Shown here: positions 7,727 through 63,911 of the stretch, in pieces | How positions within the stretch are numbered: the first letter of the stretch is position 1 | Layout of the letters: each line of letters begins with the position of its first letter | Assembly: GCA_964633125.1 (NCBI GenBank) | Contig: CAZWDN010000002.1 | Coordinates: forward strand, 2,104-66,103 | DNA from: an uncultured Pirellula sp. | GTDB lineage: Bacteria; Planctomycetota; Planctomycetia; Pirellulales; PNKZ01 | Direction of reading: 5' to 3' | DNA: 64,000 bases | Notes under the pieces: model-generated | What the model was told of the DNA's origin: nothing | Databases searched by the model: none | Seen by the model: the letters and a program-made list of their open reading frames with translations, nothing else | Position numbers and translations under genes: made by a program

Positions 7727-8963
7727 CAATCTCTCACAACGCTATCGCTTCGTCCGCCGAAGCCGCAGTTTGCTGATGGCGACGATTGACGCCGTCGGTT
7801 GGGCGTTGTTGCGTCTGCTTCGTCGTGATCAGCGTGACGCGGCCCCTCCCTCGCCTCAATCTGTGAAACGGATTTTGCTGATTCAGCTCGACCACTTCGG
7901 GGATGCGGTCCTCACTACATCGATCTTGCCGACGCTGCGACGTCGTTTTCCCGAAGCCGCCGTCGACGTGCTGGCGGCGCCGTGGAATTGGGAAGTGTTT
8001 GCCGCTTCGCAAATCGTAGCGCGTATTCATATTTCCCGCCGCAATCGATTTCATCGGGGCGCCTCATGGCTTTGGCCGCTGGGGTTTTTGTATTGGGCGT
8101 GGAAACTGCGCAGCACGGGATATGATTTGGCCGTCGATGTGCGGGGCGACTTTGTCAATGCCGTCTTAATGTGGGCGGCCGGCATTCCTTCTCGACTCGG
8201 TTGGGATTGCGCCGGCGGCGGTTTCTTGCTAACGCATAGCGCACCGTTTCAGCCGGGGCGCCACGAAGTGCATTCGCGGCACGCGTTGCTGACGACCATC
8301 GGAGCCCGCCCGACGTCGGGCGATGTGCCGAACGTTGTGCCGACCCCCGATGCGGAACAGTTTGTCTCGTACCTCCTGGGCGACTTTCGCAGCGGTGGGC
8401 GTCCGTTACTTGTGCTTCATGTCGGGGCGGGTACGCCGGCCAAAACTTGGCCCGCGCGACATTGGCGAGAACTTCTCGGCCGTTTGGCCCTAGAGCAAGA
8501 CGCCCGGGTGATTCTTGTCGGCTCCGCGGCCGACCGCCAAACGGCGGAAGAAATTACGCAAGGCATGTTCTGGCCCGGCGTAATGGATTGGACCGGACGA
8601 CTCAACGTCGCCCAACTCGCGGCCCTAACGCGACGCTGCTCGCTGTTCATCGGCGGCGATAGCGGACCGGCGCATTTAGCGGCCGCCGCCGGAGCGAAAG
8701 TGCTTTCGATCTTCAGCGGCACGAACTCCGCCGAACAGTGGCGGCCGTGGGGGGAGCGAGTCACCGTGATATCACAGCCGGTTGCGTGTTCGCCATGCTA
8801 TTCAAATCAATGTCGTCTGCGTGAACATCTTTGTATGCAAGAGGTGCTTCCGGCGCGCGTGGCCGAAGTGATCGACACGGCGCTCCATGGCCGATCGATG
8901 CCTGCCGCTCCGTACTTTCTCAAGTTCCCCATTCGGAGCGAGCGGCGGGGTGACCAAACATGA
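7713..8963 (+). CDS. Family-9 glycosyltransferase (heptosyltransferase-like)
   Basis: It overlaps the upstream gene by 14 nt. GT9 hallmarks are present: ILLIQLDHFGDAVLTTSILPTLRRRFPEA ... LFIGGDSGPAHLAAAAG. Confidence 0.85.
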   Translation: MTLFSNLSQRYRFVRRSRSLLMATIDAVGWALLRLLRRDQRDAAPPSPQSVKRILLIQLDHFGDAVLTTSILPTLRRRFPEAAVDVLAAPWNWEVFAASQIVARIHISRRNRFHRGASWLWPLGFLYWAWKLRSTGYDLAVDVRGDFVNAVLMWAAGIPSRLGWDCAGGGFLLTHSAPFQPGRHEVHSRHALLTTIGARPTSGDVPNVVPTPDAEQFVSYLLGDFRSGGRPLLVLHVGAGTPAKTWPARHWRELLGRLALEQDARVILVGSAADRQTAEEITQGMFWPGVMDWTGRLNVAQLAALTRRCSLFIGGDSGPAHLAAAAGAKVLSIFSGTNSAEQWRPWGERVTVISQPVACSPCYSNQCRLREHLCMQEVLPARVAEVIDTALHGRSMPAAPYFLKFPIRSERRGDQT

Positions 8964-17777: not shown

Positions 17778-18113
17778 ATGAAGAAGTTAATTGCTCTGCT
17801 CTCGATTGCGGCGACGACGTTCGGCCTTAGCGGTTGTCGGATGTGCTGCCCGTCGTACGACTACAGCAGCCCGACCGATCCGGGCAGTTGCAATGACGAG
17901 TACTGCGGTAACGAGCGACGCGGTTCGATCTTCTCCGGCTACACGAGCGGCGCCGTCGCGAGCGACGAAGTGATCTACGAAGAGGGCGAAGTGATCGAAG
18001 AAGCGGCGCCGTCGCCTCCAGCGACTCCGAAGCCCGCTCCGCCGACGGCCAAGCCGATGAGCTACGGCACCGGCACCGAAGCTCGCGCGGTAAGCACGCG
18101 TCGCGCACGCTAA
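17778..18113 (+). CDS. Small secreted lipoprotein, Cys-rich N-terminus and Pro-rich tail
   Basis: It has a signal peptide with a lipobox (MKKLIALLSIAATTFGLSG|C), followed by CRMCC...C...C and then PSPPATPKPAPPTAKP. Confidence 0.65.
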   Translation: MKKLIALLSIAATTFGLSGCRMCCPSYDYSSPTDPGSCNDEYCGNERRGSIFSGYTSGAVASDEVIYEEGEVIEEAAPSPPATPKPAPPTAKPMSYGTGTEARAVSTRRAR

Positions 18114-18136
18114 ATCGCGTTACCGTTGCACGCCTA

Positions 18137-18460
18137 AAATCGACGTAAGTCCCAAAACTTTCGGGCGACTTACGTCGATTCCGTTTTTCCCCCTGCGCAC
18201 ATAACTCGAGTTATGTGCGCACCCCTTGTGGGTTTTGGGGTTGTGCGCACATAACCGAAGTTATGTGCGCAGGGCTCAGGATGCCGTCGACGTAAGTGCC
18301 CATCGCGAAGAGCGACTTACGTAGGGTGGGTCGAGCAAAGCGAGGCCCACCCTACTGAAGCGAGCGGCACACGGAGTGCGCCTGCAACTTTGAATTGCCA
18401 AAGACCATCTCGCAAAGTAGCGAAATGGTCCGGCAATCTCCAGGCAAGTTTTGGCCGGCC
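18137..18460. repeat. Composite palindromic intergenic element, copy 1 (four-hairpin 187-nt block + variable hairpins + 68-nt tail module)
   Basis: Hairpin A, 18140-18178: TCGACGTAAGTC / GACTTACGTCGA. Hairpin B, 18195-18220: GCGCACATAAC-TCGA-GTTATGTGCGC. A conserved 24-nt spacer follows. Hairpin C, 18245-18270: GCGCACATAAC-CGAA-GTTATGTGCGC. Hairpin D, 18290-18322: ACGTAAGT / ACTTACGT. A GTAGGGTGGG...CCCACCCTAC hairpin lies at 18321-18355 and the tail module at 18393-18460. A second copy lies at 62902-63265. Confidence 0.9.
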
Positions 18461-18544
18461 ATTTTTTTCCTTTACATGGTCGGCGTCGCCGGGTGTAATC
18501 ACCACCTGCCTTCTTTGCATCGCCGCCGCCCCGTTAGAACCTCC

Positions 18545-20035
18545 ATGAGCGCTCCGAATCCTAAGCCCCCCTCTGCGCCCGCGTCGTCGCCGGACACGTT
18601 CGATATCACGAACCCGCCGACGACGTTCTTCGGCATCATGCGCCGCCTCGGACCGGGCCTGATCATCGCGGCATCGATCGTCGGCTCGGGCGAACTGATC
18701 GGCACGACCAAGACCGGCGCCGACGCCGGCTATTCGCTGTTGTGGCTGATCTTGATCGGCTGCGTGATCAAGGTGTTCGTGCAGATTGAGTTTGGTCGCT
18801 ATGCCGTGGCCGAAGGGGTGTCGACCATCGACGGCTTGAATCGCGTGCCGGGCCCGCGCTTCGGCGTCAATTGGCTCGTCTGGGCCTGGTTCGCCATGTT
18901 CCTCACCAGCGCGGTCGGCCAACTCGGCGGCATCTTGGGGGGCGTCGGACAACTATTGGCGATGCAGTTTCCCATTACGGGCGACTTCGTCGAGCACCTC
19001 GATCGCATTGCCGAGTATCGTGCCGCCGGCCGCATGGCCGAACTTCCGCAGGTGCGGACCTACGACGACGTCTACTACTGCGTGGGCACGGCGATCATTA
19101 CGTCGATTCTCCTGGTCGTCGGGCACTACGGCGTGGTGCAGCACGTCTCGACGTTCCTCGTTGCCGGCTTTACGGCGGTTACCGTCTTCAACGTGTTCGC
19201 CTTGCCGTACTTCGGCAACTCGCAAACCGGCTGGCAGTACATTCGCCAAGGGCTTGTATTCGCGCTGCCGGACAAGCCCGGCGCTTTGGCGACGGCGCTG
19301 GCGACGTTCGGCATCATCGGCGTCGGTGCATCGGAGCTGATTGCCTATCCGTATTGGTGCCTCGAACGCGGCTACGCGCGTTTCACCGGAAAGCGGGACG
19401 GCTCACCGCAATGGGCGGAACGGGCCCGCGGTTGGATGCGCGTCATGCATTACGACGCGTGGTTCTCGATGATTATCTACACGTTCGCCACCGTGGCGTT
19501 CTATATCCTCGGCGCCGCGATTCTGCATCCGACGGGCCAATCGCCGGAAAAGGAAGGGATGATTCGCACGCTGGCGGGGCTCTATTCCGACGTATTTGCT
19601 CCCTGGGGAGACGAAATCTTCCTGTTCGGTGCGTTTGCCGTGTTGTATTCCACGCTGTTTGTCGCGACGGCCGGAAATTCACGCGTGGCCGCCGATGCGC
19701 TCGGTGTATTCGGCTTCATCGAGAAAAGTGAAGCGCAGCGCAAGCGATGGATCACGATCTTTTGCGGCGGATTTCCTTTCCTGCAGTTGGCGATCTACTG
19801 GTGGTCGAAAGATCCCGTAGCGCTGGTGATCATCGCGGGCTTGGCCCAATCGATGCTATTGCCGCTGTTGGGCGTCGCGGCGCTGTATTATCGCTACCGT
19901 TGCTGCGATCCGCGCATCATGCCGGGGCGCACCTGGGACGTCTTTCTCTGGCTCTCAGTGTTCGGCTTGGCAATTGCCGGCACTTGGAGCGCCTATTCCG
20001 AATTCGCAAAGATCGTCAAGGCGTTCGCCTCATAA
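18545..20035 (+). CDS. mntH: Nramp-family divalent metal (Mn2+/Fe2+) transporter
   Basis: GPGLIIAASIVGSGELIGTTKTGADAGYSLLWLILIGCVIKVFVQIEFGRYAV and the multi-TM layout are typical of Nramp/MntH. The start is set at the ATG at 18545, downstream of the repeat element. Confidence 0.88.
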   Translation: MSAPNPKPPSAPASSPDTFDITNPPTTFFGIMRRLGPGLIIAASIVGSGELIGTTKTGADAGYSLLWLILIGCVIKVFVQIEFGRYAVAEGVSTIDGLNRVPGPRFGVNWLVWAWFAMFLTSAVGQLGGILGGVGQLLAMQFPITGDFVEHLDRIAEYRAAGRMAELPQVRTYDDVYYCVGTAIITSILLVVGHYGVVQHVSTFLVAGFTAVTVFNVFALPYFGNSQTGWQYIRQGLVFALPDKPGALATALATFGIIGVGASELIAYPYWCLERGYARFTGKRDGSPQWAERARGWMRVMHYDAWFSMIIYTFATVAFYILGAAILHPTGQSPEKEGMIRTLAGLYSDVFAPWGDEIFLFGAFAVLYSTLFVATAGNSRVAADALGVFGFIEKSEAQRKRWITIFCGGFPFLQLAIYWWSKDPVALVIIAGLAQSMLLPLLGVAALYYRYRCCDPRIMPGRTWDVFLWLSVFGLAIAGTWSAYSEFAKIVKAFAS

Positions 20036-62856: not shown

Positions 62857-62862
62857 CCGGCT

Positions 62863-63265
62863 GTAGGGAACGCCTCGGAGGGCGCTCCCTACGGAGCCTG
62901 CAAATCGACGTAAGTCCCCATTCGCGTGCGCGACTTACGTCGACTCTCATTTTCGCGCTGCGCACATAACTCGAGTTATGTGCGCACCCCTTGTGGGTTT
63001 TGGGGTTGTGCGTAGATAACCGAAGTTATGTGCGCAGGCCGTTTTCGACCGTCGACGTAAGTAGGGAACACGAAGAACTACTTACGTCCAAGTAGTCCGC
63101 TGCCGGAGCGGCGGAAATGCGCGTTCTCGGTCGATGTCGATAGCCGTCGCGCACGACGGCGGGTGCCGTTTTGCCGCTACGTAGCGGCGGCCTGCTCAAT
63201 TGCCAAAGATCATCCCGCAACGTAGCGAATCCGGCGGGCGATCTCCAGGCAACTTTTGGCCGGCC
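62863..63265. repeat. Composite palindromic intergenic element, copy 2
   Basis: A GTAGGGAACGCC...GGCGCTCCCTAC hairpin lies at 62863-62892. Hairpin A is at 62905-62943, B at 62960-62985, C at 63010-63035 (2 mismatches in the 5' arm) and D at 63054-63088. A variable hairpin-rich insert follows, then the tail module at 63198-63265. The 187-nt A-D block is collinear with 18137-18323 without indels. Confidence 0.9.
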
Positions 63266-63386: not shown

Positions 63387-63911
63387 ATGAGCAATCCCGA
63401 GTTCAAAATCAATACGGGCGAGTCGGGAAGCATCGCGGAGAAGTTGCAAAAGAAGTCGTTCGGCCAAGCGAAAGGGTTGTTGATCTTCGCCGGCATCACG
63501 TTGTTGGTCAGCGCCGGCATTACGTTGGCGACCGCCGAAAGTCAGAGCGTCGATGCGGCCCGTGCTCAAGCGGCGAATAAGGCCGAAGTCGAGCAACTCG
63601 CCAACCAAATCATGCTCGGCGTTTACATCATCGGCGGCGGGATCGGCGTTTGCGGGCTGGCTCTATTCATCCTCGGTTTCTTCGTCAAACGCGCTCCGGT
63701 CGGCGTCACGGCGGCCGGCCTGATGCTCTACCTGGGCGTTCATGGCGCTCTCGGCTTTCTCGATCCGACCAACATCGTCAGCGGCATCATCGTCAAGATT
63801 CTGATCGTCGTCGGCCTCATCGCCTCGCTCAAATCAGCGGTCGCTTATGAGGCGGCGCAGAAAAAGAAACGCTTCGATGAAGACGGCCTGGAAATCGTCG
63901 CCGCTAATTGA
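63387..63911 (+). CDS. Hypothetical membrane protein (about 4 TM helices)
   Basis: Hydrophobic segments include GLLIFAGITLLVSAGITLA, IMLGVYIIGGGIGVCGLALFILGFF, VTAAGLMLYLGVHGALGF and GIIVKILIVVGLIASL. No family was recognised. Confidence 0.55.
   Translation: MSNPEFKINTGESGSIAEKLQKKSFGQAKGLLIFAGITLLVSAGITLATAESQSVDAARAQAANKAEVEQLANQIMLGVYIIGGGIGVCGLALFILGFFVKRAPVGVTAAGLMLYLGVHGALGFLDPTNIVSGIIVKILIVVGLIASLKSAVAYEAAQKKKRFDEDGLEIVAAN

Follow-up and report, generated by a model that had tools for sequence, protein, structure and literature searches.

A repeated composite palindromic element in the Pirellulales, with parts in common with the flanks of a terminase-like gene

The element and its copies in the window

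The window, which is the whole 64,000-nt stretch of DNA analysed here, comes from an uncultured Pirellula sp. Between a lipoprotein-like gene and the Nramp gene that follows it lies a composite palindromic element, described in Table 1. The four hairpins, the 24-nt spacer, the REP hairpin and the 68-nt tail were each found where the first-pass annotation had placed them, and its description of a repeated composite palindromic element is borne out by further copies. The element was also held to be non-coding, and this stands. Two small open reading frames, one of 13 amino acids across the spacer and one of the MIFGN type at the tail, were considered and rejected, neither being conserved between copies.

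Table 1. Features of the two copies of the element in the window, and of the flanking sequence to the right of copy 1.
Feature	Positions	Strand	Description
Composite element, copy 1	18137..18460	+	hairpin module, REP-filled gap and tail; 30 homologous copies elsewhere
Hairpin A	18140..18178	+	12-bp stem TCGACGTAAGTC (18140-18151) / GACTTACGTCGA (18167-18178); loop variable
Hairpin B	18194..18221	+	26-nt perfect palindrome GCGCACATAAC-TCGA-GTTATGTGCGC at 18195-18220
Central spacer	18221..18244	+	24 nt, ACCCCTTGTGGGTTTTGGGGTTGT; near-invariant in the clade
Hairpin C	18245..18270	+	arms of B, CGAA loop
Hairpin D	18287..18322	+	8-bp stem ACGTAAGT (18290-18297) / ACTTACGT (18315-18322); loop variable
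GTAG-type REP	18321..18355	+	GTAGGGTGGG...CCCACCCTAC; in the variable D-to-tail gap; a separate, known kind of repeat
Tail	18393..18460	+	68 nt, AATTGCCAAAGAyCA...GTAGCGAAAC...ATCTCCAGGCrAyTTTTGGCCGGCC; conserved in sequence, not in structure
Promoter-like boxes	18414..18442	-	TGGAGA (18442-18437), 17 nt, TACTTT (18419-18414)
Ancestral T-run and Nramp promoter, outside the element	18461..18499	+	TTTACA (18471-18476), 17 nt, TGTAAT (18494-18499)
Element, copy 2	62902..63265	+	A 62905-62943, B 62960-62985, spacer 62986-63009, C 63010-63035
Element, copy 2, remainder		+	D 63052-63090, REPs, tail 63198-63265

The element consists of three parts: the A-B-C-D hairpin module, which forms a long imperfect palindrome around the asymmetric spacer, a variable gap, and the tail. 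The family alignment places its ends at (A)AATCGACGTAAGT on the left and TTTTGGCCGGCC on the right. In copy 1, hairpin A starts 24–27 nt 3' of the stop codon of the upstream lipoprotein-like gene. Hairpin B, taken together with the T and A that flank it, has a 28-bp layout of 11-6-11. The B/C pattern matches four times in the window (0.00 expected) and the A/D arm pattern seven times (0.93 expected), and the folding z-score is about -10 on either strand.

The second copy in the window is 88% identical to the first over the core and 85% over the tail, with an unrelated D-to-tail gap. A covariance model of B-spacer-C recovers exactly two cores in the window, scoring 108 and 105 bits. There are thus two copies per 64 kb and four B/C-type palindromes within 45 kb; neither the pattern searches nor the covariance-model searches found a solitary A/D or B/C hairpin in the window.

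The D-to-tail gap ranges from about 20 to about 220 nt across the family. Its contents are GTAG-tagged REPs (GTAGGGTGGG..., and GTAGTCCGCCGC... with its inverted partner), which form an established class of repeat that has been reported in Planctomycetes too (PMC3733652). Similar GTAG REPs are often found directly to the left of hairpin A. The content of the gap differs even between orthologues (copy 1 against L020 and L047, copy 2 against L055; L numbers denote loci of relatives), and the gap is therefore best seen as a landing pad outside the conserved unit. A short variant of the module (L007, L010 and L016) has one A-type arm to the left of B and its partner to the right of C, giving a T-shaped fold.

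The conserved parts change to different degrees. The arms of hairpin A are kept even in the diverged orthologues L039 and L042. The spacer is unchanged in copy 2, in L003 (retrieved via hairpin B) and in L050, has one or two changes in L054 and L052 (both retrieved via a protein), and is replaced in L039 and L042.

One variable position in the stem of hairpin B pairs in 22 of the 23 copies (G-C in 13, C-G in nine, unpaired in one), and a second is U-A in two copies. At the same site, the window has CAC/GTG and L047 and L020 have CAG/CTG, which is a double, compensated change. Hairpin C is looser than B: the pair 178-194 is G-C in 13 copies, C-G in three and unpaired in nine, and nine copies carry a stable G.G mismatch in this hairpin that appears to be inherited. 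The aligned copies thereby show that the central palindromes evolve together with their pairing kept. Since template switching or gene conversion can also compensate changes in DNA palindromes, it is maintenance of the palindromes that is demonstrated, rather than selection on an RNA. The long hairpin formed by A/D and B/C is thermodynamically preferred, and is the sole pairing possible in the short variants; the covariation supports the local B hairpin better than long-range pairing of B to C. Counts of G-U against A-C pairs favour the plus strand in hairpin C and the minus strand in A and B, and strand assignment on this basis was dropped because the hairpins contradict each other.

Family, gain and loss, and neighbouring genes

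The family comprises 31 copies in at least 19 flank groups, a rough count because REPs shared between flanks merge groups and incomplete contigs may split others. All copies are in Pirellulales metagenomes or metagenome-assembled genomes (MAGs). The total combines loci from a metagenome scan with loci reached via neighbouring proteins. The metagenome scan, which used the spacer, gave 33 loci, of which about 22 have the whole layout. A scan of species-representative genomes, which did not include the source genome, used the CAC form of the B palindrome and gave one true relative only, in Pirellula sp. MAG PB1.007 (L003), an undercount because most copies carry the CAG form. The pattern search proposed in the first-pass annotation therefore did find further copies, and these lie in many genomic contexts.

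Searches beyond the family itself were negative. Rfam 15 gave no gathering-score match anywhere in the window, and a permissive scan of 18050-18600 gave matches at chance level only (E ≥2). Neither tRNA nor tmRNA genes are present in the window. Plasmids and phages gave no blastn match to the element core, and viral contigs matched neither the three DNA patterns nor the profile of the terminase-like protein discussed below. No copies beyond the targeted loci were found in about 185 kb of neighbouring sequence of relatives, and nhmmer found no solo tails in about 500 kb. A literature search on the tail sequence and on planctomycete repeats returned nothing beyond the paper on GTAG/CGTC REPs (PMC3733652). 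This is an element family of about 330–450 bp, non-coding, confined to one planctomycete group and not described before.

The site of copy 1 was compared between relatives on the basis of the Nramp gene. The site is filled in L047 and L048 (Nramp 95% identical in both) and in L020, and is empty in L045 (82%) and L046 (85%). The two empty sites contain the stop codon, an ordinary terminator hairpin, the T-run, and the same promoter, TTTACA-N17-TGTAAT. On this comparison the simplest history is a gain in the lineage of the window. The run AT7 after GGCCGGCC had been taken as the end of a terminator-like tail. Both the T-run and the Nramp -35 box are present in element-free genomes, and because the same T-run occurs in the empty sites of L045 and L046, the T7 belongs to the flank.

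The site of copy 2 follows IspG and a Zincin_1 gene. It is filled in L055, which has a close copy (IspG 98% identical), and in L039 (92%) and L042 (93%), and is empty in L043 (88%) and in L046. L039 keeps A, D and the tail, and has the central arms GCGCACTAA/TTAGTGCGC and a different spacer; L042, which shares its contig with L045, retains A and the tail and has arms built on GTGCGTGCAAA. In both, the replaced central arms are again self-complementary. Copies within a genome are more alike than orthologous copies in sister species, and this points to replacement or gene conversion among copies. Central palindromes that are species-specific, and alike within one genome, are a known pattern in BIMEs. 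Comparison of filled with empty sites revealed no target-site duplication, and no direct repeat flanks the copies in the window or in the metagenomes. Taken together, these comparisons of loci show an element that is repeated in many contexts, is present or absent among relatives at orthologous sites, and hosts REPs.

The neighbouring genes are unrelated across loci, and include Nramp, A2M-like proteins, peptidases and others. In about ten loci hairpin A lies 0–54 nt 3' of the stop codon of a co-oriented gene, and in L039 and L042 the TAA within the arm of hairpin A is itself the stop codon. In about five loci the left neighbour is divergent. The tail is often 3–40 nt away from where a convergent gene stops; at other loci it is upstream of a gene in the same orientation. 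Unrelated neighbours in every orientation rule out a dedicated leader or switch of the downstream gene. The structural switch suggested in the first-pass annotation, read as a cis-regulator of the downstream gene, therefore has to be given up: the flanking genes differ and occur in all orientations, and genomes with and without the element have the same Nramp promoter. A cis-regulator or riboswitch of Nramp in particular was rejected, as the element-free orthologues keep the same promoter and the other copies have unrelated neighbours.

The position of hairpin A suggests another role on the plus strand, in which the hairpins would be transcribed with the upstream gene as part of its 3' UTR and would either terminate transcription or stop 3' exonucleases, as has been proposed for REPs. 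The ten or so loci with hairpin A just past a co-oriented stop codon, the overlap with the stop codon in L039 and L042, and the replacement of an ordinary terminator hairpin at the copy-1 site all argue for it. Against it, the left neighbour is divergent in some five loci, the module is on the opposite strand relative to the gene at the terminase-like locus (see below), no hairpin is followed by a plus-strand T-run, and the tail is left unexplained. As the explanation of the element this is improbable. In a more limited form the idea is part of the explanation favoured below: since the hairpin module lies directly against the stop codon of the left gene, it probably doubles as the 3'-end hairpin of that gene.

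The tail and the terminase-small-subunit-like gene

The first-pass annotation described the tail as terminator-like, on the basis of the T-run and of pairing between AAATGGTCCGGC and GCCGGCCATTT. This does not hold for the family. The T-run is in the flank, the pairing is specific to one locus, and the tails have no consensus fold (RNAalifold on 20 aligned tails gave no consensus pairs). What is conserved is the sequence of the tail, in which the opposite strand has promoter-like boxes.

On the minus strand, 18 of the 21 tails read TGGnrA-N17/18-(T/G)AnnnT at the same offset from GGCCGGCC. In the second hexamer A2 and T6 are constant and positions 3–5 vary, as expected of a -10 hexamer. The hexamers seen are TACGTT, TAGCGT, TACTTT, TAACGT, TACCGT, GACAAT, GATAAT and GAGAAT, with TGGAGA or TGGAAA as the box on the -35 side. 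The diverged tails of L039 and L042, the sequences of which were read by eye, keep TGGAAT-N16-GAGAAT or GAAAAT. The -35 box is missing in two copies, L003 and L036. TGGAGA is a poor match to TTGACA, and a consensus scanner calls no promoter in the tail on either strand; by E. coli criteria the -35 box is therefore weak. The clade does have canonical promoters, those of argB and Nramp being examples.

Two other promoter assignments were rejected. A plus-strand promoter, TTGCCA-N17-TAGCGA, has a T at -10 position 6 in no copy, and many of the downstream genes are convergent. A sigma-54 reading of the tail boxes fails because the spacing is unsuitable. At the other end of a minus-strand transcript, two to four T residues follow hairpin A and none follow the short module, and with so few the hairpin module is not a canonical intrinsic terminator.

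At some loci the two parts of the element are separated by a gene. In L007 there is an open reading frame of 132/133 amino acids on the minus strand, between a short hairpin module and a variant of the tail. Its product matches PHROG 4102 (E = 3e-12) and the Pfam family Sf6_terminase (E = 9e-5, below the curated cut-off), and the best solved-structure matches to its predicted structure (mean pLDDT 66) are to the Sf6 small terminase gp1. The protein contains only a helix-turn-helix and a helical domain, and has no HUH/Y1 catalytic motifs. There are ten clusters of homologues among 5.8 billion proteins, all from the Pirellula group. The gene has housekeeping genes on either side, and neither a large terminase gene nor a capsid gene is nearby. 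The first-pass annotation had not anticipated a link to a terminase-like gene.

In L050, L052 and L054 the gene is at a syntenic, single-copy site, in the order M32 peptidase, terminase-like gene, argB. In all three, as in L007, both parts of the element flank it. Comparison of these loci thereby shows that both parts are common to the flanks of the terminase-like gene in related genomes. A strong intrinsic terminator closes the M32 peptidase gene. After it comes the tail in reverse complement, and about 85 nt upstream of the ATG of the terminase-like gene is TGGAAA-N18-GAGAAT. Given the peptidase terminator, and no canonical promoter before the gene, the promoter must be in the tail. The stop codon of the gene marks the start of the short hairpin module, and wherever the DNA of a locus was read, TCG ACG TAA of the outer arm encodes S-T-stop. 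Nine of the ten homologue clusters end in S-T-stop, including one that is only 51% identical; P0245 has a different C-terminus. A gene locus (L054) and a dispersed copy (L003) are found in the same MAG, and L016 is a gene-less copy of the short subtype. In L054 the motif beside the -35 box is a perfect palindrome, TTTTTGGCCGGCCAAAAA.

On the basis of these observations, we hypothesise that the element is a BIME/MITE-like, non-autonomous mosaic and works as a transcription unit on the minus strand, yielding a structured non-coding RNA. This is the explanation we favour, and we put it at a little less than an even chance. The tail would hold a sigma-70-like promoter firing on the minus strand, and the hairpin module would be the 3' end of the transcript. 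At a founder-like locus, the unit of tail and module would express the DNA-binding protein; the gene-less copies would give structured RNAs of about 280–400 nt, which in the window would be antisense to both neighbours. The copies may spread or be homogenised via gene conversion or mobilisation in trans. If the promoter reading is true, these genomes would have a series of structured non-coding RNAs that resemble one another and run antisense or convergent to neighbouring genes, and the promoter and 3' structure of a gene would be able to spread as a gene-less cassette.

The same loci suggest a role for the protein itself. Small terminases bind sites within or adjoining their own genes, and the terminase-like protein may similarly bind the palindromes, or the motif TTTTGGCCGGCCAAAA, both at its own locus and in the dispersed copies, forming an array of recognition sites for a regulator or a pac-like system. 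The gene is always flanked by both parts of the element and has its last codons in the outer arm, both the protein family, whose clusters all come from the Pirellula group, and the element have a narrow distribution, and the palindrome TTTTTGGCCGGCCAAAAA lies next to the -35 box in L054, all of which is consistent with this proposal. The central palindromes of L039 and L042 are however wholly different, the gene has housekeeping neighbours, with neither a large terminase nor a capsid gene close by, and neither gene nor element occurs in viral contigs. We consider such an array unlikely. More improbable again is a single system of protein and element, in which a domesticated small terminase from the founder copy would recognise dispersed cassettes of hairpin plus tail, and these would be pac-like points on the chromosome at which DNA enters packaging or transfer, or would form a structured-RNA regulon under its control. 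If true, this would be a protein-repeat partnership of a new kind, parallel to RAYT-REP. A functional link to the terminase-like protein would make the finding considerably more interesting.

Comparison with known repeats

The first-pass annotation had compared the layout to BIME/REP-type elements, and in its behaviour the element does resemble a mosaic of this type: it occurs in many contexts, is present or absent among relatives, has species-specific central palindromes at an orthologous site, and has GTAG REPs inside. As in the BIMEs and REPINs of enterobacteria and pseudomonads, extragenic inverted palindromic units surround a conserved non-palindromic motif, one long hairpin is possible, the element is often at the 3' end of a gene, and orthologous intergenic sites vary. 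It is nevertheless several times larger (about 330–450 bp), its units are untagged and, in the window, never alone, it adds the 68-nt tail with promoter-like boxes, and its copy number appears low. The only gene flanked by parts of the element is terminase-small-subunit-like, not a RAYT.

In its extragenic mosaic arrangement, with inverted units and conserved motifs between the units, the element agrees with REP/BIME. The individual hairpins are not tagged REPs: there is no GTAG in A-D, the only CGTC is a paired one within the A/D stems, and the A-D loops are 13–16 nt rather than 4–5. The GTAG REPs (18321-18355 and 62860-62893) are guests, distinct from the hairpins of the element itself. Nor do the features of PATEs, which derive from IS200/IS605, fit. 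A subterminal hairpin is present at the left end only (hairpin A), and the tail at the right end has no conserved structure. There is no conserved tetra- or pentanucleotide target, the left flanks sharing at most A or AA before TCGACG, and no full-length relative has a Y1 TnpA, the only gene-bearing relatives encoding the terminase-like protein. The terminal inverted repeats of a MITE are also absent, the ends AATCGACGTAAGT... and ...TTTTGGCCGGCC being unrelated. The possibility that the copies are remnants of a known IS or MITE, raised in the first-pass annotation, thus finds no support, as there are neither terminal inverted repeats nor a target-site duplication. The element is thus closest in behaviour to BIMEs, REPINs and transcribed MITE-like repeats, and lacks defining features of tagged REPs, PATEs and MITEs.

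These comparisons bear on the second most probable explanation, namely that the element acts at the DNA level, as a REP/BIME- or PATE-like element whose single-stranded hairpins are recognised by a trans-acting HUH enzyme (RAYT/TnpA-type) or some other structure-specific enzyme, which spreads and homogenises the copies, with any transcription being incidental. The mosaic layout, the extragenic position, and the gain and loss at orthologous sites would all be explained, as would the central palindromes, which are species-specific and are alike between B and C and between copies in one genome. Folding of a single strand favours one long REPIN-like hairpin, and these genomes have active GTAG REPs, which makes active RAYTs probable too. 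On the other hand, no Y1 or other transposase is in or beside any copy, A-D have no GTAG or CGTC tag, the B/C and A/D hairpins are never alone in the window, and there is neither a conserved target tetranucleotide in the left flank nor a conserved hairpin at the right end. The conserved 68-nt tail, and its fixed orientation to the terminase-like gene, would have no explanation. With no RAYT or IS200/IS605 transposase, terminal inverted repeat or target-site duplication found, recognition by a single-strand transposase is therefore hypothetical. We consider the DNA-level reading rather unlikely, and prefer that of a minus-strand transcription unit. It should be noted that the preferred and alternative readings are not fully exclusive of one another.

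Other known repeats share some of these properties. Correia/NEMIS in Neisseria, BOX and RUP in pneumococcus, and ERIC are intergenic, 100–400 bp long, and have long internal inverted repeats. They carry promoter or terminator signals, as is proposed for the element, and fold strongly once transcribed. The element differs from them in having no terminal inverted repeats or target-site duplication, and no insertion sequence is known to match it. The terminase-like locus can be compared to REPtrons and TIRtrons, in which a single-copy RAYT or TIRYT gene is flanked by repeats thought to be dispersed by it (PMC3733652). It resembles a REPtron in having a vertically inherited single-copy gene at a syntenic locus, with flanks that recur elsewhere without the gene. 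It differs in that the flanks are two different modules, a tail with a putative promoter and a hairpin module, rather than inverted copies, and in that the flanked protein has no HUH/Y1 catalytic motifs. The unusual part of the element is this terminase-like partner.

Several recombination sites have a similar shape. Hairpin B reads TGCGCACATAA-CTCGAG-TTATGTGCGCA, with an inner ATAA-N6-TTAT and an 11-6-11 layout, and this resembles E. coli dif, GGTGCGCATAA-TGTATA-TTATGTTAAAT; we regard the resemblance as a lead and not as a test. B and C could then be tyrosine recombinase sites of the Xer/dif type, or a single site of the integron attC type when folded together. The hallmark is present in the B hairpins of this clade, and is lost in L039 and L042, where the arms are CTAA-N9-TTAG or CAAA-N8-TTTG and the spacing is also lost. 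Unlike a single-copy dif, there are four such palindromes within 45 kb and several copies per genome, the loop of C varies in length, and no recombinase is linked. It may be added that no dif site has been predicted for Planctomycetes (PMC3025954), which would favour the proposal; we nevertheless consider it very improbable.

The remaining likenesses are of shape only. The short variant shares the topology of the AAV ITR, with an outer stem enclosing two small hairpins, and B and C folded together give two duplex arms around an unpaired centre, as in integron attC and CTX-phi attP. There is no sequence similarity to any of these and no linked Rep, Xer or IntI, and the element, in contrast to them, is chromosomal and dispersed.

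Apart from the GTAG REPs, the interspersed repeats of Planctomycetes have barely been charted. The family would add to them a composite element that is gained and lost among close relatives, and whose nested hairpins are kept by compensated and concerted change. Its third unusual property is that both of its parts are common to the flanks of a single-copy, phage-derived DNA-binding gene. There is also a practical effect. In the same organism, assemblies from short reads stop within hairpin C, which a repeat would be expected to cause; the element breaks short-read assemblies of these organisms.

REPs beside the A and D hairpins

The GTAG-tagged REPs at the two window copies of the element (see table) are of at least three sequence types, and are positioned immediately to the left of hairpin A and within the gap past hairpin D. 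Among close relatives the REP content of orthologous copies is not the same, which suggests that the REPs are in active turnover and land preferentially beside the A and D hairpins.

Features located in the window
Feature	Position	Strand	Remark
GTAG-tagged REPs	18321-18355; 62860-62893; 63093-63116; 63170-63195
Nramp promoter, TTTACA-N17-TGTAAT	18471-18499		Kept in relatives whether or not they carry the element
Membrane-protein-like ORF, 174-183 aa	63360-63911 (ATG at 63389)		Between copy-2 tail and convergent A2M-like gene
31-nt stretch similar to tail end (CAAGTTTTGGCCGGCG)	8419-8449	minus

Hairpin C

In four related loci (L006, L014, L026 and L027) hairpin C is directly followed by an extra half-site, TGCGCAGATAAC or TGCGTACATAAC, so that, judged from sequence, two different 5' arms could serve as pairing partner for the 3' arm of C. 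The local layout of C plus the extra half-site is in this respect like a switch. In two Logan assemblies of the same organism (L037 and L038) the contigs begin at about window position 18260, within hairpin C: short-read assemblies are broken by the element.

Surroundings of the element

The Nramp promoter is conserved, and the argB promoter in two of the loci with a terminase-like gene (L052 and L054) reads TTGACA-N16-TAAAAT, which together show canonical sigma-70 promoters to be in use in this clade.

The membrane-protein-like ORF beyond copy 2 has no Pfam match, and is missing from the corresponding place in three relatives carrying the element after IspG (L055, L039 and L042); in these the tail runs right up to the A2M stop codon. 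The remaining parts of the element are absent near the tail-like stretch, and its likeness to the tail end is probably due to chance.

An IS4/Tn5-like transposase ORF, recognised by eye (N-terminus MWAGKELFDAELGDERRVLRL...), lies on the reverse strand of L016, about 130 nt past the tail; it starts just outside this gene-less short-variant copy, and is probably an unrelated insertion in the neighbourhood.

Internal direct repeats occur at about 49.5-58.7 kb of the window. Upstream of IspG, L039, L042 and L055 (1-8300) carry very large flagellin-like genes (1024-1110 aa), which are adjoined by FliW, CsrA, FliD and FliS.
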